From UHGV virus genome UHGV-0009628: 29,410 nt of DNA; one strand, written 5' to 3'. The notes under the pieces are model-generated. The model was not told where the DNA came from, made no database searches, and was given only the letters and a program-made list of their open reading frames with translations. This document shows positions 1 to 23,998 of the stretch, piece after piece. The translations under genes and the position numbers were made by a program. The stretch is from a virus. The number at the start of each line of letters is the position of its first letter. Positions within the stretch are counted from its first letter, which is position 1.

Positions 1-50
1 TATCGATGTGGTCAATGGAAGACGGTTACCAGAGATAGGGCTTATGCATA

Positions 51-77
51 AAAAAATAAGCCCGTGTAAGGGAGATT
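51..77. other. P2-type attachment-site core at the prophage/host junction; bases 1-50 are presumed host flank
   Basis: AAAAAATAAGCCCGTGTAAGGGAGATT read directly at 51-77, matching my recollection of the 27-bp P2 att core; lies just outside the 3' end of int as in P2. Confidence 0.65.
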
Positions 78-156
78 TAGGGTGTCACCAGTAGGGGCTT
101 TCAACGGTACAATGCGGGTTTGAGCGGCATAAATTACCACTGAAAGCCCTTAAACG

Positions 157-1170
157 TTACTCTACTGTGGACACTGTGTGGACACTCTCGGCTTCAGTAC
201 CACCTCTTAGCGGATTAAGAGAAATGGCGTCCTGAAGGTACTCTGGCGCAAAATGAGCGTAAACCATAGTTTGCTCAATCCGCGTGTGACCTAGTATCCG
301 TTGTAGCGTGATAATACTTCCTCCATTAATCATGAAATGAGTGGCAAAGCTGTGCCTTAGTGCATGTGTGGCTTGCCCCGTTGGCAAATCCGGTTTTATT
401 GCTTTCATTGTTCGTCTGAAGCGAGGGTAATCAGCATCAGGGAATAAAAAACCTCGTTTGTTATCCGCGATCATTTTGGCAACAGCCTCTGAGATCGGGA
501 CGGTGCGTGGTTTGTTTGTTTTCGTTTTAACAAACGTGACGCGGTTATGGATGATATTTTCTGCTTTCAAACGAGCTGCTTCTCCCCAACGTGCTCCTGT
601 ACTCAGGCAAAGAATCGCAATCTTTTTGTTGTCGCCGTCAAGTGCTGCAAGCAGTAAGGCAATTTCTTCCTGTGTGAGATAGCCTGTTTCTGGTTTTTCC
701 TCCTTAAGCCTCTTTGTCCCTCTGATAGGGTGCTCACCAAAGAATAACTCCGCTTCAATCAGGGCTGTAAACATGCCGCTAATACATGTTAAATCACGAT
801 TGATACTCGAAGGTTTAATACCCTGACTTCTTCGGGTGGCGCAGTACTGGCTGATAAGGGATTTCGTGATTTGAAATGCGCATGGGTCATTCGTTATTTT
901 TGTGAAGATTTCAATTTTTCCAAGATTAGATTTCCCATGCTCTTCGTGTTTACCCTTTAAATCCCACCAGATCTGTGTCAGTTCCGACAGACGTCGTTTG
1001 TCTGTTGGTTTTGATAGCCATTCTTTATTGTGGTGGTTGTACAACGTGTATTTTTCGAAAGCGACAGCTTCGCTTTTCTTATCAAACTTCCTACGGATAC
1101 GTTTTCCGTTACGTCCAGTAGGGCGGATGTCCACTTCATATCGACCATCATCGAGTTTTTTGATTGCCAT
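157..1170 (-). CDS. int: Tyrosine integrase (P2 Int family)
   Basis: 337 aa, ATG start. C-terminal catalytic region HALRHSFATHFMINGGSIITLQRILGHTRIEQTMVYAHF carries the R..H-x-x-R...Y signature of tyrosine recombinases. Position adjacent to att core. Confidence 0.95.
   Translation of the reverse strand: MAIKKLDDGRYEVDIRPTGRNGKRIRRKFDKKSEAVAFEKYTLYNHHNKEWLSKPTDKRRLSELTQIWWDLKGKHEEHGKSNLGKIEIFTKITNDPCAFQITKSLISQYCATRRSQGIKPSSINRDLTCISGMFTALIEAELFFGEHPIRGTKRLKEEKPETGYLTQEEIALLLAALDGDNKKIAILCLSTGARWGEAARLKAENIIHNRVTFVKTKTNKPRTVPISEAVAKMIADNKRGFLFPDADYPRFRRTMKAIKPDLPTGQATHALRHSFATHFMINGGSIITLQRILGHTRIEQTMVYAHFAPEYLQDAISLNPLRGGTEAESVHTVSTVE
166..184. promoter_or_regulatory. Two direct TGTGGACA repeats (166-173, 177-184) one helical turn apart; candidate Int arm-type binding sites
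   Basis: Exact 8-bp direct repeat with 11-bp periodicity inside the 3' end of int, next to the att core. Assignment to Int binding is from recollection of P2 attP architecture and is an inference. Confidence 0.4.
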
Positions 1171-1285
1171 CAGAAAACCCTCCGAGTGGTACTTTTTTTT
1201 GCTACTACTAATCGCTTTTTTCGTGGTGGCTGAAATTTAGCCACCAATAGTAGGCACTTGTGATGAATATATTCGCGATAAATTG

Positions 1286-1585
1286 TTAACCAGTCTTTTG
1301 ACCGGAGTGGGGCGACGTTGTTTCGTTTTGCCCAAAGTGTGCGAGAGCGGGCGCAATTTGCCCGGCTTCTGGAGCTACCTGATCAGTCATGAACCACAAA
1401 GTATATTTAGTAAATCTGGGATGTTGTAAGACCTTCATTATGGCTTCAACTCCAGCGTTTTTTGACCGGCTCTCATAGCTCGAAAGTGAGCTGTAGGCTA
1501 CACCAGTTAATTCACTGAATTCTTTACGGTTTAACCTTTCAGATTCACGGATTAGCTTCAACTTCTCCGAAACGTCTATTGACAT
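1286..1585 (-). CDS. C: Immunity repressor C (P2 C-like)
   Basis: 99 aa from ATG at 1585 (track 123-aa form starts at an upstream TTG). Divergent from cox as in P2; C-terminus HFGQNETTSPHSGQKTG resembles the P2 C tail as I recall it. Confidence 0.85.
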   Translation of the reverse strand: MSIDVSEKLKLIRESERLNRKEFSELTGVAYSSLSSYESRSKNAGVEAIMKVLQHPRFTKYTLWFMTDQVAPEAGQIAPALAHFGQNETTSPHSGQKTG

Positions 1586-1706
1586 AATTACTCCGATTGC
1601 GTAATTTCTTGCTGATAGTGTGAAATGTTGCGCTTCTGGAGTTATCCTTTTAGGCAATAATTAGCCATTAGGAGCCATTAGAAGCACTAAGGGAGAATCG
1701 TAGCAG
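1586..1706. promoter_or_regulatory. C/cox intergenic developmental-switch region (expected Pc/Pe promoters and operators); contains direct repeat AGCCATTAG at 1663-1671 and 1674-1682
   Basis: 121-bp AT-rich divergent intergenic region between repressor and cox; 9-bp direct repeat with 11-bp spacing read from sequence. Promoter and operator positions not resolved. Confidence 0.5.
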
Positions 1707-1982
1707 ATGAATAGACAGCTTGTAAGCGTGACTGATGCCGTGCCTTATCAGGAGTTTGCAAAACTCATTGGTAAAACTCCAAGAGCTGTAAGGGGCATGA
1801 TTGAGAAAGGGAAATTACCAGTTATTGAGATTACTGACCCTCAGTCAGTATCGGGGCGTGCTGGTGAATATTGGGTATACCTTCCGGCATGGAATAACGG
1901 ACTAAAACTGGCTTATGAAAGCCGTCCTAAAGAGATTCGTGACGGCTGGTTGATGTGGTTAGGTCTCGGTGAACCACGTTAA
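1707..1982 (+). CDS. cox: Cox-like excisionase / repressor of Pc
   Basis: 91 aa, ATG with GGGAGAA SD; same length and position as P2 Cox; C-terminal half GRAGEYWVYLPAWNNGLKLAYESRPKEIRDGWLMWLGLGEPR matches P2 Cox as I recall it. Confidence 0.9.
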   Translation: MNRQLVSVTDAVPYQEFAKLIGKTPRAVRGMIEKGKLPVIEITDPQSVSGRAGEYWVYLPAWNNGLKLAYESRPKEIRDGWLMWLGLGEPR

Positions 1983-1992
1983 GGAGAACCGT

Positions 1993-2163
1993 ATGAATGA
2001 GCCTCGTTGTATTGCTCAGTTATTGCGTAACGAAAGCCCCAGGGCGATTGACTTCACCATCACCCACGGTAAGGGGCGTAAGGGAATCATTATCCGCACC
2101 AAAAAACAGAGTCCGTTAAAAAAGGCTCTGACCTTTCTGAAAAGCCGGAGGGTCTGGAAATGA
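1993..2163 (+). CDS. Small basic hypothetical protein in the P2 orf78 position
   Basis: 56 aa from ATG at 1993 preceded by AAGGAG (track start 1969 is further upstream). Stop overlaps B start (ATGA). Confidence 0.5.
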   Translation: MNEPRCIAQLLRNESPRAIDFTITHGKGRKGIIIRTKKQSPLKKALTFLKSRRVWK

Positions 2164-2660
2164 CAGTGATGACGCTCAATCTCGTTGAAAAACAGCCAGC
2201 AGCTATGCGCCGGATAATTGGTAAGCATCTGGCCGTCCCTCGCTGGCAGGAGACATGCGATTATTATAATCAGATGATGGAACGCGAACGGCTAACGGTT
2301 TGCTTCCATGCGCAGTTAAAACAGCGTCACGCAACGATGCGTTTTGAAGAAATGAACGACGTCGAACGTGAACGGCTGGTTTGTGCAATTGATGAACTGC
2401 GTGGGGCATTCTCAAAACGCCGTCAGGTCGGTGCAAGTGAGTATGCATATATTAGCTTTTTAACTGTCAGTCAGCGCCGTACTTTATTTATGCATGCCGG
2501 ATTGACTGAAAAAGAATTCAACCAGCCATACTGGCGAATTAATGAAGAATCATGTTACTGGCGTGATGCCTTATTCCGTGCATTACGTGAATTATTCAGC
2601 CTGTTTGAGTATGCACCGACAATTCTGACGTCGGTAAAACCAGAGCAATATCTGCATTAA
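2160..2660 (+). CDS. B: Replication protein B (helicase-loader-like)
   Basis: 166 aa, same length and position as P2 B, between cox and orf80-83/A. Confidence 0.85.
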   Translation: MTVMTLNLVEKQPAAMRRIIGKHLAVPRWQETCDYYNQMMERERLTVCFHAQLKQRHATMRFEEMNDVERERLVCAIDELRGAFSKRRQVGASEYAYISFLTVSQRRTLFMHAGLTEKEFNQPYWRINEESCYWRDALFRALRELFSLFEYAPTILTSVKPEQYLH

Positions 2661-2723
2661 GTAATTAACCAGAGTTTTTAACGCACTTAATTGTGCGGGG
2701 CTTCTTTTTGCCTGGAGAAAGTC

Positions 2724-2948
2724 ATGCATACAGTTTCTGAAAATCAGTGCGGTAAATACGCATTACTGCTGCAACAGGCCAGAACCGAAGCACAGGCCGA
2801 CGCAGCGACGCGCTTTTCTTCTCATCTTGACGCCATGATTCGCCACATCACAAAGGCGGAGTTATCCCGCGTAGAGATAGTCGAGCTGCTCAGTCAGGAG
2901 TCGGAAAAATTTCACAATATCGGATTGTCTCGCGGGGAGGTGCTTTGA
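2724..2948 (+). CDS. Early-operon hypothetical protein (orf80 position)
   Basis: 74 aa from ATG at 2724 with GGAG SD; track start 2691 is TTG. Synteny only. Confidence 0.6.
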
Positions 2949-3250
2949 TGTCCTGTTCTCGTTCAGTTGTATTACTGAATAACGCCTTAAAAATCACCGT
3001 TATGAAAAATGGCGATCTATCTCTTATTCAACTTGGTCTTGATAAAGAAAAACGCGAAATAACTGAGTCTGTTATCGCGATTTATCAGAACGAATTAAAT
3101 CTCCTGTCTGATGTGGTCAATTTACTTGTTAAACGCGCTGTATTTCACAAGCAAATCTCCTCCGTGGATGAACTGACGAAATTAACGACAGAAATTGCCA
3201 GCTATTGCGCTGATGAATTTAAAAAACTTAACGACAAAAGGAACTGGTAA
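2948..3250 (+). CDS. Early-operon hypothetical protein (orf81 position)
   Basis: 100 aa from ATG at 2948 (TGATG overlap with the preceding stop); track start 2945 is TTG. Synteny only. Confidence 0.6.
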   Translation: MSCSRSVVLLNNALKITVMKNGDLSLIQLGLDKEKREITESVIAIYQNELNLLSDVVNLLVKRAVFHKQISSVDELTKLTTEIASYCADEFKKLNDKRNW

Positions 3251-3474
3251 TGCCGGACAACGTAGATTTTATTCAGGAACAACAGGCTGAATTACTGGAG
3301 CGTCAGATTAACGCGGCAAGGGTAAAACATTGCGGAGCTTCTGCGCTGGTTTGCGAAGAGTGTGACGCGCCAATACCTGCTGCCCGTCGTGCGGCTTATC
3401 CGTCAGCCACGCGTTGTGTTTCCTGCCAGTCAGTCTTTGAAGCAAAAAACAAACATTACCGGAGAACGGCATGA
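3250..3474 (+). CDS. TraR/DksA-type C4 zinc-finger protein (orf82 position)
   Basis: 74 aa; two Cys pairs CEECDAPIPAARRAAYPSATRCVSCQ form a C-x2-C...C-x2-C finger; TAATG coupling with the upstream ORF. Confidence 0.75.
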   Translation: MPDNVDFIQEQQAELLERQINAARVKHCGASALVCEECDAPIPAARRAAYPSATRCVSCQSVFEAKNKHYRRTA

Positions 3475-3746
3475 GTATTCGTATTGAAATTGGCGAACGT
3501 TATGTCGTTACCAGTGACAGCTTTCAGTTTATTCTCCACGAGAAAAAGAGAGCGGAAAGCGGTAAAAACGCCGGTCAGGAATGGCTGGCGGTGGTTGGTT
3601 ATTATCCGAAATTAAGCCAGCTCGTTTCCGGCCTGATGCATCACGATATTCTGACCGGAAGCGCAAAGTCTTTTGCTGATTTAAACGCGCAGGTTGAGCA
3701 ACTCAGCAGGCGTTGTTCAGAGGCTTTTGGCTCATATGGCCGTTAA
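3471..3746 (+). CDS. Early-operon hypothetical protein (orf83 position)
   Basis: 91 aa, ATG with GGAGAA SD; stop overlaps the start of A. Confidence 0.6.
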   Translation: MSIRIEIGERYVVTSDSFQFILHEKKRAESGKNAGQEWLAVVGYYPKLSQLVSGLMHHDILTGSAKSFADLNAQVEQLSRRCSEAFGSYGR

Positions 3747-5811
3747 AGCCTCCGGGCGTTTTGTCCCTCCTTCAGCATTTGCTGCAGGCACCGGTAAGGC
3801 GTTTACCGGTGCTTATGCATGGAACGCGCCACGCGAGGCCGTCGGGCGCGAAAGACCCCTTACACGTGACGAGATGCGTCAGGTGCAAGGTGTTTTATCC
3901 ACGATTAACCGCCTGCCTTACTTTTTGCGCTCGCTGTTTACTTCACGCTATGACTACATCCGGCGCAATAAAAGCCCGGTACACGGGTTTTATTTCCTCA
4001 CATCCACTTTTCAGCGTCGTTTATGGCCGCGCATTGAGCGTGTGAATCAGCGCCATGAAATGAACACCGACGCGTCGTTACTGTTTCTGGCAGAGCGTGA
4101 CCACTATGCGCGCCTGCCGGGAATGAATGACAAGGAGCTGAAAAAGTTTGCTGCCCGTATCTCATCGCAGCTTTTCATGATGTATGAGGAACTCAGCGAT
4201 GCCTGGGTGGATGCGCATGGCGAAAAAGAATCGCTGTTTACGGATGAGGCGCAGGCTCACCTCTATGGTCATGTTGCTGGCGCTGCACGTGCTTTCAATA
4301 TTTCCCCTCTCTACTGGAAAAAATACCGTAAAGGGCAGATGACCACGAGGCAGGCATATTCTGCCATTGCCCGTCTGTTTAACGATGAGTGGTGGACTCA
4401 TCAGCTTAAAGGCCAGCGTATGCGCTGGCATGAAGCGTTACTGATAGCTGTCGGGGAGGTCAATAAAGACCGTTCTCCTTATGCCAGTAAACACGCCATT
4501 CGTGATGTGCGTGCGCGCCGCCAGGCAAATCTGGAATTTCTTAAATCGTGTGACCTTGAAAACAGGGAAACCGGCGAGCGCATCGACCTTATCAGTAAGG
4601 TGATGGGCAGTATTTCTAATCCTGAAATTCGCCGGATGGAGCTGATGAACACCATTGCCGGTATTGAGCGTTACGCCGCCGCAGAGGGTGATGTGGGGAT
4701 GTTTATCACGCTGACCGCGCCGTCAAAGTATCACCCGACTCGTCAGGTCAGAAAAGGCGAAAGTAAAACCGTTCAGCTTAATCACGGCTGGAACGATGAG
4801 GCATTTAATCCAAAGGATGCGCAGCGTTATCTCTGCCGTATCTGGAGCCTGATGCGCACGGCATTCAAGGATAATGATTTACAGGTCTACGGTTTGCGAG
4901 TCGTCGAGCCACACCACGACGGAACGCCGCACTGGCATATGATGCTTTTTTGTAATCCACGCCAGCGTAACCAGATTATCGAAATCATGCGTCGCTATGC
5001 GCTCAAAGAGGATGGCGACGAAAGAGGAGCCGCGCGAAACCGTTTTCAGGCAAAACATCTTAACCGGGGCGGTGCTGCGGGGTATATCGCGAAATACATC
5101 TCAAAAAACATCGATGGCTATGCACTGGATGGTCAGCTCGATAACGATACCGGCAGGCCGCTGAAAGATACTGCTGCGGCTGTTACCGCATGGGCGTCAA
5201 CGTGGCGCATCCCGCAATTTAAAACGGTTGGCCTGCCGACAATGGGGGCTTACCGTGAACTACGCAAATTGCCTCGCGGCGTCAGCATTGCTGATGAGTT
5301 TGACGAACGAGTTGAGGCTGCACGTGCCGCCGCAGACAGTGGTGATTTTGCGTTGTATATCAGCGCGCAGGGTGGGGCAAATGTTCCGCGTGATTGCCAG
5401 ACTGTCAGAGTCGCCCGTAGCCCGTCGGATGACGTTAACGAGTACGAGGAAGAAGTCGGGAGAGTGGTCGGCATTTACGCGCCGCATCTCGGCGCGCGTC
5501 ATATTCATATCACCAGAACGACGGACTGGCGCATTGTGCCGAAAGTTCCGGTCGTTGAGCCTTTGACTTTAAAAAGCGGCATCGCCGCGCCTCGGAGTCC
5601 TGTCAATAACTGTGGAAAGCTCACTGGTGGTGATACTTCGTTACCGGCTCCCACACCTTCTGAGCACGCTGCAGCAGTGTTGGATTTGATTGATATAGGG
5701 GTGGTTAGTTGGAATGATGCTGAGGTGATGACAGTTCTTAGGAAGAGATTAAAAGATTACTCACGGGAATTGATGGTATTCAAAGGAAGGGCTAGCCAAC
5801 GCCCAATCTGA
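3736..5811 (+). CDS. A: Rolling-circle replication initiator A (phiX174 gpA-like nickase)
   Basis: 691 aa from ATG at 3736 (track start 3694 is TTG). Motifs GTPHWHMMLF (HUH-type metal-binding His pair) and AAGYIAKYISKNIDG (catalytic Tyr pair) typical of RCR initiators; position after orf83 as in P2. Confidence 0.9.
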   Translation: MAVKASGRFVPPSAFAAGTGKAFTGAYAWNAPREAVGRERPLTRDEMRQVQGVLSTINRLPYFLRSLFTSRYDYIRRNKSPVHGFYFLTSTFQRRLWPRIERVNQRHEMNTDASLLFLAERDHYARLPGMNDKELKKFAARISSQLFMMYEELSDAWVDAHGEKESLFTDEAQAHLYGHVAGAARAFNISPLYWKKYRKGQMTTRQAYSAIARLFNDEWWTHQLKGQRMRWHEALLIAVGEVNKDRSPYASKHAIRDVRARRQANLEFLKSCDLENRETGERIDLISKVMGSISNPEIRRMELMNTIAGIERYAAAEGDVGMFITLTAPSKYHPTRQVRKGESKTVQLNHGWNDEAFNPKDAQRYLCRIWSLMRTAFKDNDLQVYGLRVVEPHHDGTPHWHMMLFCNPRQRNQIIEIMRRYALKEDGDERGAARNRFQAKHLNRGGAAGYIAKYISKNIDGYALDGQLDNDTGRPLKDTAAAVTAWASTWRIPQFKTVGLPTMGAYRELRKLPRGVSIADEFDERVEAARAAADSGDFALYISAQGGANVPRDCQTVRVARSPSDDVNEYEEEVGRVVGIYAPHLGARHIHITRTTDWRIVPKVPVVEPLTLKSGIAAPRSPVNNCGKLTGGDTSLPAPTPSEHAAAVLDLIDIGVVSWNDAEVMTVLRKRLKDYSRELMVFKGRASQRPI

Positions 5812-5950
5812 TTATGTTTTGTAATGATAAGTTAATGCTGAATGAGTGGCTCGCGCATAACCTTGCGGGAAAAAGAGCATATTATGTACAGTTTTGAGGT
5901 TGGCTAGAGGGGATGGGCGAGATAGTTTGTGTTTGTGTGGGTTTGAGAAG

Positions 5951-5968
5951 TTTGATGCGCACATCAAA
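5951..5968. promoter_or_regulatory. Perfect 18-bp palindrome TTTGATGcgcaCATCAAA, candidate operator
   Basis: 7-bp inverted arms with a 4-bp spacer, directly upstream of the candidate -35 of the cargo cassette promoter. Confidence 0.35.
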
Positions 5969-5970
5969 AA

Positions 5971-5999
5971 TTGATACAACTGATTGAAAAAATGATAAA
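5971..5999 (+). promoter_or_regulatory. Candidate sigma70 promoter for the cargo cassette (-35 TTGATA 5971-5976, 17-bp spacer, -10 GATAAA 5994-5999)
   Basis: Hexamer match and spacing read from sequence, about 40 bp upstream of the ORF1 ATG, which has an AAGGGGGGAAG SD. Confidence 0.35.
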
Positions 6000-6036
6000 A
6001 AAGCTGTTAAATGCGTCAGTTTTCTAAGGGGGGAAG

Positions 6037-7167
6037 ATGAAAAAAATAACCAAGAGAGAAAGAGAGAGAGATATTTTACGATCCTATTTACATCGTACAG
6101 GAAGAGATGTTGTATCTGCAGGGCGCTCTAAGATTAATCCTATTTCAAAAGCATCAAAAATAAATCGTTGGATAAATGCGCAAATTAAAGATGGATTAAA
6201 TTGCGAAATAAGGAAAAATAGAGACCTTTTCCTTACTTTACCTAAAAAGATGAACTTTTCAAGTAATTACCATCGTACAATGCAAGCCATACAAACGATT
6301 AGGCATCTTACAGGGCGGAAGATATTTAATAACCAATGTTACCGTCTTTGTTTTGTTGACTTTTCGAAGATTGAATATATTTCTGCATCTGCCGCATTGG
6401 TATTGACCGCGGAATTATCAAAATGGGATGATTCGGTAAGGCAACGCATTCGCCCAAAAGTGAAAACGTGGAATAAAAACATACTCTCTCAATTTGATGA
6501 GTTGGGTTTTTTTGACTTATTTAGAAATAAAGATAGTTTTGAGCTTGAAAAAGAAAAGGAACCAAGTAATATCCGTTTTGTTAAGTATATGAAAGGACAT
6601 TTACATGATGATGAAAAAACTCAGCATTTAAAAAAAGAAATAAAGCGTATTGTGGGAGAAGACCTTGGTAAATGGACTTTCCTATACAGTGGTTTGTCCG
6701 AAGCTATTACAAATGTTGTTCATCATGCTTATCCAGATAATAAAGGCTATCATGAGCATGATAAAAAATGGTATTTAACTGCTTCATATGATAGTTCAAG
6801 TAGAATAATAAAAGTAGTGTTTTATGATCAAGGTATTACAATTCCTGGGTCTTTGCCGGAATCTAAACTCCATGAAAAGGTTTTAAATTACCTTTCGAAG
6901 TTACCGCTTGCAGAACGAAAAAGAGATGAACAATTGTTAAAGGCTGCAGTTGAAATCAAACGTTCTAGTACGGGGGAAGAGGATCGGGGTAAAGGCTTGC
7001 AGGACTTGTTGGAGTTCATAAAGCAACGTGGTGAAGGTTATCTTTCAATTATGAGTGGTAAAGGCCTTTACAAATACTCACAACATGATAAAAAATCTGA
7101 GGTAAAATCAGTAAGCTTCGCTCTGCCTGTTTGTGGTACACTTATAGTATGGAGTACAAAGCTATGA
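6037..7167 (+). CDS. Cargo ORF1: GHKL-superfamily ATPase/kinase-like protein (C-terminal half resembles RsbW/SpoIIAB-type anti-sigma-factor kinases), N-terminal about 200 aa unknown
   Basis: 376 aa, ATG with strong SD; about 33% GC against a GC-rich backbone. N-box-like LSEAITNVVHHAY (aa 220-232), G1-like YDQGITIPG (aa 262-270), G2-like RGKGLQDLLEF (aa 317-327). Motif-level recognition only. Confidence 0.6.
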   Translation: MKKITKRERERDILRSYLHRTGRDVVSAGRSKINPISKASKINRWINAQIKDGLNCEIRKNRDLFLTLPKKMNFSSNYHRTMQAIQTIRHLTGRKIFNNQCYRLCFVDFSKIEYISASAALVLTAELSKWDDSVRQRIRPKVKTWNKNILSQFDELGFFDLFRNKDSFELEKEKEPSNIRFVKYMKGHLHDDEKTQHLKKEIKRIVGEDLGKWTFLYSGLSEAITNVVHHAYPDNKGYHEHDKKWYLTASYDSSSRIIKVVFYDQGITIPGSLPESKLHEKVLNYLSKLPLAERKRDEQLLKAAVEIKRSSTGEEDRGKGLQDLLEFIKQRGEGYLSIMSGKGLYKYSQHDKKSEVKSVSFALPVCGTLIVWSTKL

Positions 7168-7553
7168 TTACTAGATTGGTTGCTAGCCTCATGAAAACAT
7201 TGAAGATTGGTTCAGAGTTCTCGAAAGTTCCCAGAGGCCGCTATCGTACTGACGGGACAGCAAGTGGTGAACGGTTTAGAGAAGATTTCTTAAGAAAGCG
7301 TCTAAGCTTGCTTTCTGCTGGGGAAAAATTGCAGATAGTCATCGATGATGATGTCGAAGGATATGGTTCGTCTTTTTTGGTGGAGGGCTTTGCGGGCATG
7401 GTAAAATATGGATATATGCATGCCAATGAGTTATTGTCTAAAATTGAAATTAAATATACTAATCCTGATTTTGATTTCTATAAAAAGAAAATAGAACAAT
7501 ATATCAACGAGGCGCAGTTTAATTCGAAACGATATGAGCCAACAGTCGAATAA
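7164..7553 (+). CDS. Cargo ORF2: small STAS-like (DUF4325-like) protein, candidate partner of the ORF1 kinase/ATPase
   Basis: 129 aa from ATG at 7164 (ATGA overlap with ORF1 stop, GGAG SD 10 nt upstream; track start 7131 is TTG). Segment SGERFREDFLRKRLSLLSAGEKLQIVIDDDVEGYGSSFLVEGFAGMV resembles the anti-sigma-antagonist/STAS pattern around the phospho-Ser. Confidence 0.5.
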   Translation: MITRLVASLMKTLKIGSEFSKVPRGRYRTDGTASGERFREDFLRKRLSLLSAGEKLQIVIDDDVEGYGSSFLVEGFAGMVKYGYMHANELLSKIEIKYTNPDFDFYKKKIEQYINEAQFNSKRYEPTVE

Positions 7554-8196
7554 TCCGATGTTTATTTTAGGTGAGGGTTCTGGTGAGTTCTCACCTAGTT
7601 TGCTTTTTATCAAGAAGGATAATGAAGAAGGCCTGAGTGCTACTCATGCAGTTAAGGATATTAATACGATAATTGAAGTAGCTAGTTCTAATATTGTTGA
7701 TGCAATACGGCATCCACCTGAAACGCCTATTTTATCGTCATCACTTATTACGGCTCTTATTAGTACTATTTGTGCGGCCACTGCCGCATTTGCATATAAT
7801 AAAGTCCATTGGCGTTCTGTTGTTAAACGGGAGACTAAAACCAAACTCCTGGAGAGTATTTCAGATGTGGTTAATGAGTTGCGTTCTGATGCTATTAGTT
7901 ATTGGTTGAAGGGGTATTCAAAAAAGTCGGCGAAGTCTCTCTTAGAAGAGGAAATGAGAATTAAGGCGAGTTTAAATATAATAAATTCGACTATAACAAT
8001 ATATGTTCAGCAAGAGTCGCGATGGAAAAGAAAGGATATTGAAGCTCAGTTAAGGGTTTTTCATGACGAACTTTTTGATATTATAACAGGTGATGATTTT
8101 GAGTCTCAGGCAAGGAAGCAGGATAAGGCAAAGGTTTCTGCTATTTCTACAAAGTGTGTGGCTTTTCGCGTTTTATTAAATACCATCAAGTTTTAA
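7534..8196 (+). CDS. Cargo ORF3: single-pass membrane protein, candidate effector
   Basis: 220 aa; overlaps ORF2 by 20 nt; one hydrophobic stretch PILSSSLITALISTICAATAAFAY (aa 65-88) followed by a charged, likely helical C-terminal region. No recognisable catalytic motif. Start could be 7558 instead. Confidence 0.5.
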   Translation: MSQQSNNPMFILGEGSGEFSPSLLFIKKDNEEGLSATHAVKDINTIIEVASSNIVDAIRHPPETPILSSSLITALISTICAATAAFAYNKVHWRSVVKRETKTKLLESISDVVNELRSDAISYWLKGYSKKSAKSLLEEEMRIKASLNIINSTITIYVQQESRWKRKDIEAQLRVFHDELFDIITGDDFESQARKQDKAKVSAISTKCVAFRVLLNTIKF

Positions 8197-8328
8197 GATA
8201 GCCATGCATGAGTTTGGTGCATGAAAATGCATGAGGTTTTACGAATTATTTTGGCTAAAATCAGCCTGCCCTGACTGGCTACGGCAGATATCATGCACCT
8301 GCATTAAAACCGCCCCATGAAGCGGGCG

Positions 8329-8347
8329 GGCGAGGCGGGGAAAGCAC
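8329..8347. other. cos site (19-nt cohesive-end sequence of P2 type)
   Basis: GGCGAGGCGGGGAAAGCAC at 8329-8347 matches my recollection of the P2 cohesive end; lies about 170 bp from the 3' end of Q as in P2. A GC hairpin CCGCCC-N8-GGGCGG (8310-8329) abuts it. Confidence 0.6.
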
Positions 8348-8489
8348 TGCGCGCTGGCGGTGGTGCTGATTTTATTTTTTCAGCGTCTGAGTGCGTCGTG
8401 AAGGCGTTTACTTGGCCTGCCAGGGCGTCGGTGTGTCTGCGGGCTGTTTTGCGCGGTGGTGAGCGTGTGAGGGCGTGATGGCGGGTTGT

Positions 8490-8511
8490 AAAAAAGCCGC
8501 CCGCAGGCGGC
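8490..8511 (-). terminator. Rho-independent terminator downstream of Q (minus strand)
   Basis: On the minus strand, GCCGCC-TGCG-GGCGGC hairpin followed by TTTTTT, immediately 3' of the Q stop at 8517. Confidence 0.7.
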
Positions 8512-8516
8512 GATGT

Positions 8517-9551
8517 TCAGCCGTTGTCAGTGTCCAGTGAGTAGTTTTTAAAGCGGATGACCTCCTGACCGAGCCAGCCGTTTATTTCCCGAATCCTGTC
8601 CTGTAACGGGATAAGCTCATTGCGGACAAAGACCTTTGCCACTTTTTCAATATCACCCAGTGACCCGACGTTCTCCGGCTTGCCCCCCATCAACTGAAAG
8701 GGGATGCGGTGCGCGTCCAGCAGGTCAGCGGCGCTGGCTTTTTTGATATTAAAAAAATCGTCCTTCGTCGCCACTTCACTGAGGGGGATAATTTTAATGC
8801 CGTCGGCTTTCCCCTGTGGGGCATAGAGAAACAGGTTTTTAAAGTTGTTGCGGCCTTTCGACTTCACCATGTTTTCGCGGAGCATTTCGATATCGTTGCG
8901 ATCCTGCACGGCATCAGTGACGTACATGATATATCCGGCATGAGCGCCGTTTTCGTAATACTTGCGGCGGAACAGCGTGGCCGACTCATTCAGCCAGGCA
9001 GAATTAAGGGCGCTGAGATATTCCGGCAGGCCGTACAACTCCTGATTAATATCCGGCTCCAGCAGGTGAAACACGGAACCGGGCGCGAAGGCTGTCGGCT
9101 CGTTGAAGGACGGCACCCACCAGTAAACATCCTCTTCCACACCACGGCGGGTATATTTTGCCGGTGAGGTTTCCAGTCTGATGACCTTACCGGTGGTGCT
9201 GTAACGCTTTTCCAGAAACGCATTACCGAACACCAGAAAATCCAGCACAAAGCGGCTGAAATCCTGCTGGGAAAGCCACGGATGCGGGATAAATGTCGAG
9301 GCCAGAATATTGCGTTTGACGTAAATCGGGGAGCTGTGATGCACGGCAGCACGCAGGCTTTTTGCCAGACCGGTAAAGCTGACCGGTGGCTCATACCATC
9401 TGCCGTTACTGATGCACTCGACGTAATCCAGAATGTCACGGCGGTCGAGTACCGGCACCGGCTCACCAAAGGTGAATGCTTCCATTTTCGGGGCGCTGGC
9501 GGTCATTGTTTTTGCCGCAGGTTGCGGTGTTTTCCCTTTTTTCTTGCTCAT
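8517..9551 (-). CDS. Q: Portal protein
   Basis: 344 aa, same length and position as P2 Q; ATG overlaps the P stop (ATGA). Confidence 0.9.
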   Translation of the reverse strand: MSKKKGKTPQPAAKTMTASAPKMEAFTFGEPVPVLDRRDILDYVECISNGRWYEPPVSFTGLAKSLRAAVHHSSPIYVKRNILASTFIPHPWLSQQDFSRFVLDFLVFGNAFLEKRYSTTGKVIRLETSPAKYTRRGVEEDVYWWVPSFNEPTAFAPGSVFHLLEPDINQELYGLPEYLSALNSAWLNESATLFRRKYYENGAHAGYIMYVTDAVQDRNDIEMLRENMVKSKGRNNFKNLFLYAPQGKADGIKIIPLSEVATKDDFFNIKKASAADLLDAHRIPFQLMGGKPENVGSLGDIEKVAKVFVRNELIPLQDRIREINGWLGQEVIRFKNYSLDTDNG

Positions 9552-20259: not shown

Positions 20260-22067
20260 CAGTGAAATACTACGCCATTCTGACTAATCAGGGCGCAGCA
20301 CGACTGGCTAACGCGACGATGCTCGGCAGTAAGCTGAATCTGACGCAAATGGCCGTTGGTGATGCGAATGGTGTCTTGCCGACACCAGACCCGGTACAGA
20401 CAAAACTGATTAACCAGAAACGCATTGCACCGCTGAATCTTCTGAGTGTTGACCCTAACAATCAGAGCCAGATTATTGCGGAGCAAATTATCCCTGAAAA
20501 CGAGGGAGGATTCTGGATCCGTGAGATTGGGCTTTATGATGATGAAGGCGTACTCATTGCGGTGGCGAACTGCCCGGAAACGTACAAACCGCAGTTGCAG
20601 GAAGGCAGTGGTCGTACCCAGACTATCCGCATGATTCTGGTTGTCTCGAATACCGAAGCCATCACGCTGAAAATCGATCCGTCGGTGGTACTGGCGACCC
20701 GTAAATATGTGGATGACAAAATCTCAGAACACGAACAGTCACGACGACACCCGGATGCATCGCTGACCGCAAAAGGTTTTACTCAGTTAAGCAGCGCAAC
20801 CAACAGCACGTCTGAAACACTGGCCGCAACGCCGAGAGCGGTAAAGATCGCGTATGACCTTGCTAACGGGAAATATACTGCACAGGACGCGACCACAGCG
20901 CGAAAAGGTCTTGTCCAGCTCAGTAGTGCCACCAACAGCGATTCTGAAACGCTTGCGGCAACGCCAAAGGCGGTAAAGACAGCATATGACCTTGCTAACG
21001 GGAAATATACCGCACAGGACGCGACCACAGCGCGAAAAGGTCTTGTCCAGCTCAGTAGCGCCACCAACAGCGATTCTGAAACGCTTGCGGCAACGCCAAA
21101 GGCGGTAAAGACAGCATATGACCTTGCTAACGGGAAATATACCGCACAGGACGCGACCACAGCGCGAAAAGGCCTTGTCCAGCTCAGCAGCGCCACTAAC
21201 AGCACGTCAGAAACGCAGGCTGCCACACCAAAAGCCGTGAAGGCTGTATATGACCTTGCCAATGGAAAACAACCTGCCGACGCCATACTGACCGCACTGG
21301 CAGGCCTTGCCACTGCGGCAGACAAACTTCCGTATTTTACGGGGAATGATACAGCCAGCCTGACAACCCTGACTAACGTTGGACGGAATATTCTGGATAA
21401 AGCAAGCACACAGGCGGTTATTCAATATCTTGGTCTGAGCGATGCAAGTGGATACGTTGGACGCTGGCTGAATACCCGGGTTTTCACCTCATCAGGTACG
21501 TACACCCCGACGCCAGGAACAAAACGGATCAGGGTCACAATAACGGGCGGCGGTGGCGGAGGGGGCGGCTGCAAGGCTACATCCAATAATGAAACGTTTT
21601 TCGGTGCTGGCGGTGGGGCCGGTGGAACAATAATTTCAATAATGACCCCGACACAGAATAGTTATCCAGTCACTATCGGCGCAGGTGGGGCCGGTGGTGT
21701 TAGTGCGACGAACGGCACCAGTGGCGGGAATAGCGTATTTGCATCGTTAATTGCTCCTGGTGGCGCAGGTGGCGGGAAAGTGGGAGTTACAAATACAAAC
21801 GGCGGTAACGGAGGTGTGCCGAATACTGGCGATATCCGCATCACTGGTGGAAATGGAGGCGACGGTCAGTCCGGAAATATCAGCGTCAGCGGTGAAGGCG
21901 GAACATCGTACTGGGGTGGCGGTGGACGCGCAGGCGCTGGCGGTGGCGTTAGCGGCAAGGCATATGGTTCAGGCGGAGGTGGTGCATACGATGCCGGTTA
22001 TAGCGGAACCAGTATGACGGGCGGGAAAGGCGCTGCAGGGATTTGTATTATCGAGGAGTTTGCATAA
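20256..22067 (+). CDS. H: Tail fibre protein H, with internal tandem fibre repeats and a glycine-rich distal domain
   Basis: 603 aa; conserved N-terminal baseplate-attachment region, four tandem 44-aa repeats, then a C-terminal domain dominated by GG/GGxGG runs. Confidence 0.9.
   Translation: MTVKYYAILTNQGAARLANATMLGSKLNLTQMAVGDANGVLPTPDPVQTKLINQKRIAPLNLLSVDPNNQSQIIAEQIIPENEGGFWIREIGLYDDEGVLIAVANCPETYKPQLQEGSGRTQTIRMILVVSNTEAITLKIDPSVVLATRKYVDDKISEHEQSRRHPDASLTAKGFTQLSSATNSTSETLAATPRAVKIAYDLANGKYTAQDATTARKGLVQLSSATNSDSETLAATPKAVKTAYDLANGKYTAQDATTARKGLVQLSSATNSDSETLAATPKAVKTAYDLANGKYTAQDATTARKGLVQLSSATNSTSETQAATPKAVKAVYDLANGKQPADAILTALAGLATAADKLPYFTGNDTASLTTLTNVGRNILDKASTQAVIQYLGLSDASGYVGRWLNTRVFTSSGTYTPTPGTKRIRVTITGGGGGGGGCKATSNNETFFGAGGGAGGTIISIMTPTQNSYPVTIGAGGAGGVSATNGTSGGNSVFASLIAPGGAGGGKVGVTNTNGGNGGVPNTGDIRITGGNGGDGQSGNISVSGEGGTSYWGGGGRAGAGGGVSGKAYGSGGGGAYDAGYSGTSMTGGKGAAGICIIEEFA
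20772..21299 (+). repeat. Four tandem 132-bp in-frame repeats inside H (units start 20772, 20904, 21036, 21168)
   Basis: Units 2 and 3 nearly identical at DNA level; each encodes KGLVQLSSATNSDSETLAATPKAVKTAYDLANGKYTAQDATTAR-type 44-aa tail-fibre repeats. Confidence 0.9.
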
Positions 22068-22477
22068 TGAATGCGTCATATGCAGTTATTGAAAATGGGA
22101 TGGTTGTTAATGTCATTGTCTGGGATGGTGAGGATGAATTCACTGTGCCGGATAATCTGCAGCTCATTAATATTTCTGATATCAGTGAGCAGCCCGGAAT
22201 CGGCTGGGCGTATTCAGACGGGGTATTTACTGCACCACCCACTCCGGAACGTTCTCATGATGAACTGGTAGCTGACGCTGAACAGAAAAAACAGTCGTTG
22301 ATAGACGCAGCAATGGTCAATATCAGCGTGATTCAGTTAAAGCTGCAGGCCGGGCGCAAACTGACGCAAGAAGAAACTACCCGACTTAACGTTGTGCTGG
22401 ATTATATCGACGCTGTGACGGCAACAGATACCAGCACCGCACCGGATGTCATCTGGCCTGAACTGCAGGAGGCGTAG
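22067..22477 (+). CDS. G: Tail fibre assembly chaperone
   Basis: 136 aa from ATG at 22067 (TAATG overlap with H stop; track start 22043 is TTG); directly downstream of H as in P2. Confidence 0.8.
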   Translation: MNASYAVIENGMVVNVIVWDGEDEFTVPDNLQLINISDISEQPGIGWAYSDGVFTAPPTPERSHDELVADAEQKKQSLIDAAMVNISVIQLKLQAGRKLTQEETTRLNVVLDYIDAVTATDTSTAPDVIWPELQEA

Positions 22478-22685
22478 GCCATTCAATATCTGACGTACCG
22501 GAAGTATCGGACCGCTCCGGTGCGTACAGGTAATCCAGCCACAAATTATATTGCGCCAGTACCTCAGACCTGCCGGGCTATTGCTTACTGTTCATGTATT
22601 TATTGGCCTGATTAATCAGTAGCTGTCTTTCTGGTCGTGTGGATCCTGCAAATCCTGAATGGTCGGAAATACCGCAATAAATACA

Positions 22686-22710
22686 GGCGGGCTGATTGCC
22701 CGCCTTTTTT
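22686..22710 (+). terminator. Rho-independent terminator ending the V-to-G tail operon
   Basis: GGCGGGC-TGATT-GCCCGCC hairpin followed by TTTTTT on the plus strand. Confidence 0.8.
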
Positions 22711-22807
22711 ATCTGTTGTTTCATCCCCTGACCAGCCAGGACAAATAGCATCTCATGCCCTGCACAACTGAAAATACCACTCACCCATTAACCACGGAGT
22801 TAAACGG

Positions 22808-23998
22808 ATGAGTGACTATCATCACGGCGTGCAGGTGCTGGAGATTAACGACGGCACACGCGTCATTTCCACCGTATCCACTGCCATTGTCGGCATGGTC
22901 TGTACGGCCAGCGATGCGGATGCGGAAACCTTCCCCCTCAATAAACCGGTGCTGATTACCAATGTGCAGAGCGCAATTGCAAAGGCCGGTAAAAAAGGCA
23001 CGCTGGCGGCGTCGTTGCAGGCCATCGCTGACCAGTCAAAACCGGTCACCGTTGTTGTACGTGTGGAAGACGGCACCGGCGAAGACGAAGAAACGAAACT
23101 TGCGCAGACCGTTTCCAATATCATCGGCACCACCGACGAAAACGGTCAGTACACCGGACTGAAAGCCCTGCTGGCGGCGGAGTCGGTAACCGGTGTTAAA
23201 CCGCGTATTCTCGGCGTGCCGGGACTGGACACCAAAGAGGTGGCTGTTGCACTGGCATCAGTCTGTCAGAAGCTGCGCGCTTTCGGATATATCAGTGCAT
23301 GGGGCTGTAAGACCATTTCCGAGGTGAAAGCCTACCGCCAGAATTTCAGCCAGCGTGAGCTGATGGTCATCTGGCCGGATTTCCTCGCATGGGATACGGT
23401 CACCAGTACCACCGCCACCACGTATGCCACCGCCCGTGCGCTGGGCATGCGCGCTAAAATCGACCAGGAGCAGGGCTGGCATAAAACGCTGTCCAATGTC
23501 GGGGTGAACGGTGTTACCGGCATCAGCGCATCCGTCTTCTGGGATTTGCAGGAGTCCGGCACCGATGCTGACCTGCTTAACGAGTCAGGCGTCACTACGC
23601 TGATTCGCCGCGACGGTTTCCGCTTCTGGGGTAACCGTACCTGCTCCGATGACCCGCTGTTCCTCTTTGAAAACTACACCCGCACCGCGCAGGTGCTGGC
23701 CGATACGATGGCTGAGGCGCACATGTGGGCGGTGGACAAGCCCATCACCGCAACGCTGATTCGCGACATCGTTGACGGCATCAATGCCAAATTCCGTGAG
23801 CTGAAAACAAACGGCTATATCGTGGATGCGACCTGCTGGTTCAGCGAAGAATCCAACGATGCGGAAACCCTCAAGGCCGGAAAACTGTATATCGACTACG
23901 ACTATACCCCGGTGCCTCCTCTCGAAAACCTGACCCTGCGCCAGCGTATCACCGATAAATATCTGGCAAATCTGGTCACCTCGGTTAACAGCAATTAA
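22808..23998 (+). CDS. FI: Contractile tail sheath protein
   Basis: 396 aa, same length and position as P2 FI. Confidence 0.92.
   Translation: MSDYHHGVQVLEINDGTRVISTVSTAIVGMVCTASDADAETFPLNKPVLITNVQSAIAKAGKKGTLAASLQAIADQSKPVTVVVRVEDGTGEDEETKLAQTVSNIIGTTDENGQYTGLKALLAAESVTGVKPRILGVPGLDTKEVAVALASVCQKLRAFGYISAWGCKTISEVKAYRQNFSQRELMVIWPDFLAWDTVTSTTATTYATARALGMRAKIDQEQGWHKTLSNVGVNGVTGISASVFWDLQESGTDADLLNESGVTTLIRRDGFRFWGNRTCSDDPLFLFENYTRTAQVLADTMAEAHMWAVDKPITATLIRDIVDGINAKFRELKTNGYIVDATCWFSEESNDAETLKAGKLYIDYDYTPVPPLENLTLRQRITDKYLANLVTSVNSN

Follow-up and report, generated by a model that had tools for sequence, protein, structure and literature searches.

The virus genome UHGV-0009628 is a stretch of 29,410 nucleotides (nt), the whole of which we refer to as the window. 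Between the P2-type replication gene A and cos, it carries an AT-rich island whose + strand holds three overlapping open reading frames (ORFs) of 376, 129, and 220 amino acids (aa), called p1, p2, and p3 here, that fill the A-to-cos space. Apart from the island, the window corresponds to a P2-like prophage that is almost complete, with int, A, Q, P, O, N, the tail genes, and D in this order. Judged from profile comparisons, p1 and p2 are remote homologues of the kinase VapK and the STAS protein VapS, encoded in the same order, and belong to a family separate from VapKSC. The island looks like a membrane-effector relative of the VapKSC toxin-antitoxin system. On balance, we favor the reading that the three proteins form a three-component phospho-switch that is built like VapKSC with a different executioner and that acts in abortive infection or as a toxin-antitoxin system. 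We favor it because of the kinase type and ATP site of p1, the DUF4325 domain and invariant serine of p2, the homology to VapK and VapS, the topology of p3, the co-inheritance of the three genes, their toxin-antitoxin-like pattern of decay, and their positions, which are those of exclusion genes.

An initial annotation of the window had described the three ORFs as same-strand, overlapping, and packed like an operon, and this description holds. In a copy from E. coli that is 99% identical, RefSeq/PGAP also annotates these three genes, under the labels "ATP-binding protein," "DUF4325 domain-containing protein," and "hypothetical protein"; the stop codon of p1 and the start codon of p2 overlap as ATGA, and p2 and p3 share 20 nt. 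The initial annotation could assign none of the three to a P2 gene, and none of them matches a P2 structural or replication protein. Its suggestion that the system is undescribed stands in part: no PADLOC model matches it, but the exact locus (WP_032254602 + WP_032254618 + WP_126646822) is listed in Table S5A of Rousset et al. 2022 (PMC9122126), outside the systems cloned there, and p1 and p2 have remote homologues in VapK and VapS (PMC13373217). The three proteins are not all confidently homologous to those of a named system, p3 being unrelated to VapC.

A kinase of the partner-switching type and a STAS-like protein

The p1 protein (6037..7167, + strand) consists of a basic helical head (residues ~1-52), a STAS-like N-domain (~55-170), and a GHKL serine kinase domain of the RsbW/SpoIIAB type (~175-376). 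Its Bergerat-fold ATP site is invariant in 40 aligned family members, with E222 and N226 in the N-box, D264-x-G266 in G1, and R317-G318-K-G320 in G2. The best structural matches of the kinase domain are RsbW, SpoIIAB, UsfX, and SiaB, all above sensor histidine kinases, and the search of NCBIfam with the island proteins returned sub-threshold RsbW/SpoIIAB hints only. By its sequence, p1 is a partner-switching-type serine kinase with intact ATP-binding motifs. A two-component sensor histidine kinase was considered and rejected, as the combination of a DHp domain bearing a phospho-acceptor histidine and a response regulator was not found. A word-indexed search gave 342 relatives of p1, all unnamed, and identity is ~50% between the proteins of Enterobacterales, Cycloclasticus, Nitrosomonas, and Methylotenera.

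The N-terminal half of p1 has a beta-beta-alpha-beta-alpha core around the motif VDFxxLxxISTSAALVLTAEL and is STAS-like in appearance. The sequence support for this domain consists of a weak Pfam STAS match in the P4 paralogue (E = 0.003) and the colinear alignment with VapK described below; when the N-domain alone was compared with VapK, the result was not significant, and Foldseek added nothing on it.

The p2 protein (7164..7553, + strand) is a putative kinase substrate and switch. It matches the Pfam family DUF4325, a "STAS-like domain of unknown function," with an E value of 3.8e-5 and 23.8 bits (cutoff, 23), and no helix-turn-helix (HTH) or other DNA-binding domain was found in it. Three start codons are available, TTG at 7131 (140 aa), ATG at 7164 (129 aa), and an internal ATG at 7191 (120 aa). 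Among 47 p2 orthologues, the motif G-S-S-F-L-x-E-x-F-x-G (GYGSSFLxE in p2) is nearly fixed; within it, S70 (S61 by the numbering of the 120-aa form) is invariant, with ~90% conservation at S69. The invariant serine opens the helix after the IVIDD strand, the site at which SpoIIAA, RsbV, and VapS are phosphorylated.

VapKSC is a three-gene operon in which VapK, a STAS-GHKL protein, phosphorylates VapS at S48 and frees the PIN toxin VapC; VapS is a STAS domain with a short tail that binds VapC, and the system was shown experimentally to protect against phage Bas42 by ~2 logs (Chambers et al., EMBO J 2026, PMC13373217). For comparison, the VapK and VapS sequences were transcribed from the AlphaFold 3 model file of that paper. 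HHalign aligned the p1 family with VapK over 279 columns, from p1 53-374 to VapK 3-288 (probability 93.2%, E = 3e-7), and the hidden Markov model (HMM) of the p1 family scored VapK at 25.7 bits over G1-G3 (E = 3e-10, one-to-one). VapS belongs to DUF4325 (E = 2.7e-17), the Pfam family that it has in common with p2. The p2 family HMM scored it at 10.3 bits (E = 2.6e-5, one-to-one) with S48 of VapS falling on S69, and the invariant S70 lies within one residue of S48 in the profile alignment.

The likeness extends to the gene order (kinase, small STAS protein, third gene), to the overlapping stops and starts, and to a location in mobile elements with defense genes nearby. However, the third gene here encodes a transmembrane (TM) helix and a four-helix bundle, whereas VapC is a PIN nuclease, and p1, with 376 aa, carries ~50 extra basic N-terminal residues compared to the 302-aa VapK. 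The VapKSC paper mentions neither transmembrane partners nor DUF4325 (PMC13373217).

The CapK/CapS pair is similar in that a STAS-GHKL kinase is paired with a STAS substrate bearing a conserved phospho-serine. CapK is an HTH-STAS-GHKL kinase activated by single-stranded DNA (ssDNA), and CapS is a STAS-winged-HTH protein, a DNA-binding repressor encoded upstream of CBASS, Bub, or Thoeris operons (PMC13373217). In contrast to CapS with its winged HTH, p2 has 120 to 129 aa and no DNA-binding domain, and the sole gene downstream of p2 is that of the 220-aa membrane protein, followed by cos.

The RsbW-RsbV-sigmaB and SpoIIAB-SpoIIAA-sigmaF systems share with the module the RsbW/SpoIIAB-fold serine kinase. 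They and SiaB-SiaC differ from it in that p1 has an added N-terminal domain and the module has a membrane protein as its output. Among solved structures, those nearest to the kinase domain of p1 belong to anti-sigma factors, which bind their targets directly, and the STAS-like N-domain and the basic head are possible binding surfaces. Both features would suit a classical partner switch of reversed polarity, in which p1 sequesters p3, unphosphorylated p2 displaces p1, and phosphorylation of p2 keeps the system off. We consider such wiring unlikely, since VapKSC, the nearest characterized relative, is wired the opposite way, with the STAS protein binding the toxin (PMC13373217). In addition, neither the operon nor the 25 Pfam families seen most often in 146 ORFs that flank the module in other genomes (up to 2 kb away) include a sigma factor or a PP2C phosphatase, which such a switch would need for resetting.

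A membrane protein in the place of the toxin

The p3 protein (7534..8196, + strand), the putative membrane effector, starts with a disordered N-tail, crosses the inner membrane once (TM helix, ~66-88), and ends in a cytoplasmic bundle of four helices (~89-219). Its AlphaFold2 model is confident at residues 70 to 220. Residues 1 to 41 form the disordered tail, which is followed by a short helix; the TM helix, starting at ~69 in the model, runs on into a long cytoplasmic helix, and three more helices close the antiparallel bundle. The conserved residues include Y123-W124 and the loop motif T185-G-D-D-F189-E-S (loop at 186-197 in the model). This C-domain is placed in the cytoplasm, the same compartment as that of p1 and p2. 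The family comprises 351 clusters at 50% identity in an exhaustive search, and a further homologue search with the p3 alignment added at least four distant members. No match to p3 was found in Pfam, NCBIfam, or PADLOC, and no PIN domain was found in it.

The roles of p1 and p3 may also be exchanged, so that the kinase is the effector that phosphorylates host or phage proteins, p3 is an anchor or a sensor that reports on events at the membrane (for instance, DNA injection by a phage or the action of a holin), and p2 serves as a buffer or decoy. This arrangement appears very improbable to us because conservation in p3 falls on the cytoplasmic bundle, with many family members having no periplasmic tail at all, and because the invariant serine points to p2 as the real substrate. 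RsbW-type kinases, moreover, have a narrow specificity for their STAS partner.

The triad is inherited as one unit

A scan with one genome per species gave 45 loci, 43 of which have a true p1. The p2 gene is present in 42 of the 43 and is adjacent to p1 in all but one. The p3 gene was detected by HMM in 30 of the 43 p1 loci, and 11 more, belonging to the distant clade, encode downstream a small protein of like architecture, with an N-terminal TM helix, YW, and TG(G/D)(D/N)FES; a p3-type gene thus lies directly downstream in ~41 of the 43. The hosts include Alpha-, Beta-, Gamma-, and Deltaproteobacteria, Nitrospinales, Binatia, and Entotheonella. In the orthologous triads of Cycloclasticus, Methylotenera, and Serratia, identity is ~49 to 58% for p1, 59 to 65% for p2, and 25 to 41% for p3. 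The three genes are co-inherited as a conserved mobile operon.

Three damaged loci retain p1 and p2 intact, with p3 split into two ORFs (L018, 7514-8153), shortened (L023, 7618-8103), or replaced by an insertion sequence (L044, 7270-8753); a fourth (L032) has a truncated p1 by itself. No p3 without p2 was seen among the 45 loci scanned. That p3 is the damaged member and never occurs without p2 is the pattern expected of a toxin and its antitoxin.

Genomic settings and known exclusion genes

The temperate elements that carry the triad are P2-like, lambdoid, and Marinobacter AS1 (pro)phages and P4 satellites. In the P2-like A-Q hotspot, it is carried by E. coli, Raoultella, and Serratia. The Serratia P2/186-like prophage (L006) has a cos-like sequence at 5772-5836, upstream of the module (compare window 8290-8354), so that the module lies between cos and Q there and between A and cos in the window, i.e., the cargo may sit on either side of cos. 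In a Klebsiella lambdoid prophage (L054-L056, 7001-9800), the module is located between replication/ParB-HTH genes and the Q antiterminator, and right after p3 there is a fragment of ~110 to 130 aa of a P2-type portal gene, which looks like the footprint of a transfer from the P2 A-Q slot into another phage family. Pantoea has the module in a decayed P2 remnant, and Methylotenera has it in an integrase/methylase island.

Marinobacter phage AS1 (MK088078.1), a cultured temperate phage, encodes p1, p2, and p3 as AS1_41, AS1_40, and AS1_39 (183, 87, and 19.6 bits; L060, 2384-4762). The triad is directly downstream of the HTH gene AS1_42 and is divergently oriented relative to cro (Cro/CI-family), and this layout, like that of lambda cI-rexA-rexB, suggests expression in the lysogen.

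Among the 146 neighboring ORFs, defense models matched MADS, AriA/AAA_21, ATPase-Toprim, AbiLi, PtuA, a type I methyltransferase (type I restriction-modification), JetA, a reverse transcriptase, and Cas1/CARF; several integrases or transposases and many metabolic genes were also present. The module is genuinely associated with defense and mobile islands, although not in every case.

The module may not be primarily anti-phage and may be an addiction or stabilization module, or a switch of lysogen physiology or stress carried as a moron, with any phage effect incidental. The Cycloclasticus copy, which lies between housekeeping genes without mobile or defense neighbors, is in line with this, as is the presence of partition and virulence genes in P2 hotspots (PMC9122126); the authors of the CapK/VapK study likewise regard the boundary between stress response and immunity as blurred (PMC13373217). 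We nevertheless give this explanation a low probability. The module occurs in four kinds of temperate elements, in positions typical of exclusion genes; it turns over rapidly, with 15 of 5,426 complete E. coli genomes carrying the island versus 2,153 that match at least part of a query covering 5700-8500; and its relative VapKSC is a system with demonstrated protection (PMC13373217). The anti-phage reading is supported because the module sits in known sites of anti-phage cargo, namely the P2 A-Q slot, the P4 hotspot (as a paralogue), a lambdoid prophage, and a position next to the CI/Cro switch of AS1.

According to Rousset et al. 2022 (PMC9122126), the P2 slot from A to Q/cos holds old and tin in P2 itself, and other P2 loci have a different make-up, listed as "hypothetical + hypothetical + DUF4325 + DinI." A P4-hotspot entry of the same study (#69, "HATPase_c | DUF4325," "1 TM in protein 3," nine occurrences; Table S1B) shares the three-part architecture: the family HMMs give 110 bits for its p1 and 102 bits for its p2, and the topology of its p3 is the same. 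It differs in belonging to a distant clade, with 27 to 30% identity to p1 and p2 of the window and a marginal p3 score (7.5 bits), and in being found in P4 satellites, not P2. Kinase-STAS cargo may be a recurrent, unrecognized class in P2 and P4 hotspots.

Two named systems of the P2 slot were tried and rejected as identities of the island. Old/Tin gave no PADLOC, Pfam, or NCBIfam match, and Table S2A (PMC9122126) gives sequences for old and tin that are unrelated to it. Rst_3HP ("hp + hp + hp," pFR109, E. coli E1114), a validated three-gene P2-hotspot system (Rousset et al. 2022, PMC9122126), gave no PADLOC match either, and the pFR109 proteins start with unrelated sequences and have quite different lengths for all three, the first two being roughly 330 to 350 aa (Table S2A).

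The likeness to classical exclusion genes is one of position. The island occupies the genomic slot of P2 old/tin, and the AS1 module lies beside a repressor gene, as rexAB does in lambda; RexB, with four TM segments, and p3 are both inner-membrane proteins proposed for exclusion. Old is an ATPase-Toprim nuclease. However, neither old/tin nor rexAB has any sequence or domain likeness to the island proteins, and PADLOC gave no match.

In the literature searched, the papers that name DUF4325 contain nothing on this kinase-DUF4325-1TM module. The main text of a 2026 survey of P4/P2 in Nucleic Acids Research contains no HATPase, STAS, or DUF4325, and the six novel systems that it presents carry other domains.

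Proposed mechanism

In the phospho-switch that we favor, p2 would act like an antitoxin in the uninfected lysogen and keep the cytoplasmic four-helix bundle of p3 inactive. A cue associated with infection would activate the STAS-GHKL kinase p1; by analogy with CapK and VapK, this may be ssDNA or DNA damage. The activated p1 would phosphorylate the serine dyad S69/S70 of p2, and phospho-p2 would release p3, which would then self-associate in the inner membrane and compromise it. The outcome would be a growth stop or cell death before a competing phage finishes its cycle, that is, abortive infection or exclusion to the benefit of the prophage. We infer the binding partners, the toxicity of p3, the trigger, and the phage-defense outcome.

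Several points weigh against this scheme. The likeness to VapK and VapS is remote, with one-to-one scores of 25.7 and 10.3 bits, and sequence searches of the PDB yielded no meaningful match for the p1 profile, for p2, or for the p2 profile. The profile-profile comparison of the p1 N-domain with the STAS protein p2 was not significant (E = 0.07). PADLOC 2.0.0 had no match for p1, p2, or p3, and its candidate sets do not include the module. No similarity of p3 to a known toxin or pore former was found, and its bundle fold is generic, so its toxicity to the cell is a guess. The activation by ssDNA operates via an aromatic residue at the STAS/GHKL interface, F54 in VapK and W68 in CapK (PMC13373217); VapK F54 aligns to E113 of p1, a variable column where the alignment confidence is low, and the trigger may therefore differ from that of VapK. 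Many loci lie among housekeeping genes, and about a quarter of P2-hotspot cargo consists of partition genes, so not all of it is defensive (PMC9122126). The anti-phage activity of the module is a prediction from homology and context.

A wider proposal can be made tentatively. The triad would be an unnamed, phylogenetically broad family of phospho-switch immunity, the membrane-effector branch of CapK/VapK, in which p3, with its TM helix, bundle, YW, and TG(D/G)DFES, would be a membrane executioner of a new kind. The trigger may be other than the ssDNA that VapK senses, and the triad would serve as exclusion cargo of several temperate phage families and of P4 satellites.

Boundaries and landmarks of the island

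The island (5717-8290) has 36.9% GC versus 54.3% elsewhere in the window, and among all windows of the same length it has the lowest GC (minimum 0.368 at 5701; median 0.554). In 500-nt windows, the GC content goes from 52 to 57% in gene A to 34 to 38% at 6001-8000 and to 52 to 61% in the structural genes, which confirms the marked AT-rich switch between A and cos that the initial annotation had seen by eye. The third-position GC of p1, p2, and p3 is 0.27, 0.37, and 0.32, respectively, versus 0.54 for gene A.

The ORF of gene A stops at 5811. In a Megablast comparison with 86 P2-like phage records, the matches end at query positions 480-517, which places the left junction at ~5679-5716; the homology to P2-like A genes therefore ends before the A stop, and the island took over the last ~32 to 44 codons of A. 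Consistent with this, the 3' tail of A (5680..5811, + strand) has 41.7% GC versus 53.4% in the remainder of the gene. The A ORF continues open into the AT-rich DNA, and PGAP flags it as "incomplete, missing C-terminus" in the 99%-identical E. coli copy. At the other end, the matches listed for island-less E. coli genomes with the 5700-8500 query start at query 2587-2596 (window 8286-8295), where the shared cos-side flank begins, and the right junction lies at ~8286-8294; non-carrier E. coli genomes among the matches listed cover the cos-side end of the query only. The initial annotation was thus right in placing the island between A and cos, but its limits of 5812-8328 shift to a left edge inside A and a right edge short of 8328. 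Its view of the island as laterally acquired cargo in the old/tin hotspot is borne out by the GC content, the occupancy in E. coli, the left junction in A, and the hotspot study (Rousset et al. 2022). The island is rare, laterally acquired cargo beside a widely shared flank.

The upstream non-coding region (5812..6036, + strand), read from the sequence, holds a predicted promoter, TTGAGA-17-AAAAAT, at 5943-5971 and a second candidate found by eye, TTGAAA-16-TTAAAT, at 5985-6012. The ATG of p1 at 6037 is preceded, at a distance of 1 nt, by the end of a strong Shine-Dalgarno sequence, AAGGGGGGAAG. Homology to the Raoultella copy begins at window 5965. Downstream of p3, the 3' non-coding tail of the island spans 8197..8290, and a consensus terminator scan found no clean terminator directly after p3. 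Outside the module, the backbone landmarks are the P2-type cos core GGCGAGGCGGGGAAAGCAC (8329..8347, by direct reading) and, downstream of cos, the portal gene Q (8517-9551, - strand). The same cos core is present in cloned P2/P4 hotspot sequences (Rousset Table S2).

Repeats of ATGCATGAG are found at 8204-8215 and 8227-8238, and their inverted partners TCATGCACCTGCAT, at 8291-8304, span the junction of island and backbone near cos. Motifs resembling ATGCA..TGCAT also border cos in published P2/P4 hotspot clones. The ATGCATGAG/TCATGCACCTGCAT repeats could be packaging-related or a recombination scar. An Rfam scan of 5500-8700 returned only a chance-level match to CRISPR-DR60 (8016-8045, minus strand, within the p3 coding sequence; 23.4 bits versus a gathering threshold of 45, E = 0.43), which almost certainly arose by chance.

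Elsewhere in the window, the left arm (1-3693; int, immunity, and early genes) is relatively AT-rich, with 45% GC versus 56% in the late genes. The second classical P2 cargo site, between the tail-fiber gene G and FI (22477-22808), which holds Z/fun in P2, spans ~330 nt here with no ORF of at least 110 aa, and the GC content dips to ~0.49 to 0.50 in the windows of 22001-23000 that span it.

Implications

The control logic of a kinase and a STAS protein, published in 2026, and the catalog entry of the locus, from 2022, are already known; what is new is the putative membrane effector, p3. If confirmed, the module would give a function to a type of unannotated P2/P4-hotspot cargo and a name to a small family that the defense profile sets tested here have missed. 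Being compact (2.2 kb) and tractable in E. coli, it offers a route to the question of how STAS phosphorylation leads to membrane damage. Confirmation would also add a membrane effector to the outputs of kinase-STAS control, which in CapKS and VapKSC are transcription and an RNase toxin; across bacterial immunity, the phospho-switch would then count as a general and swappable trigger module.

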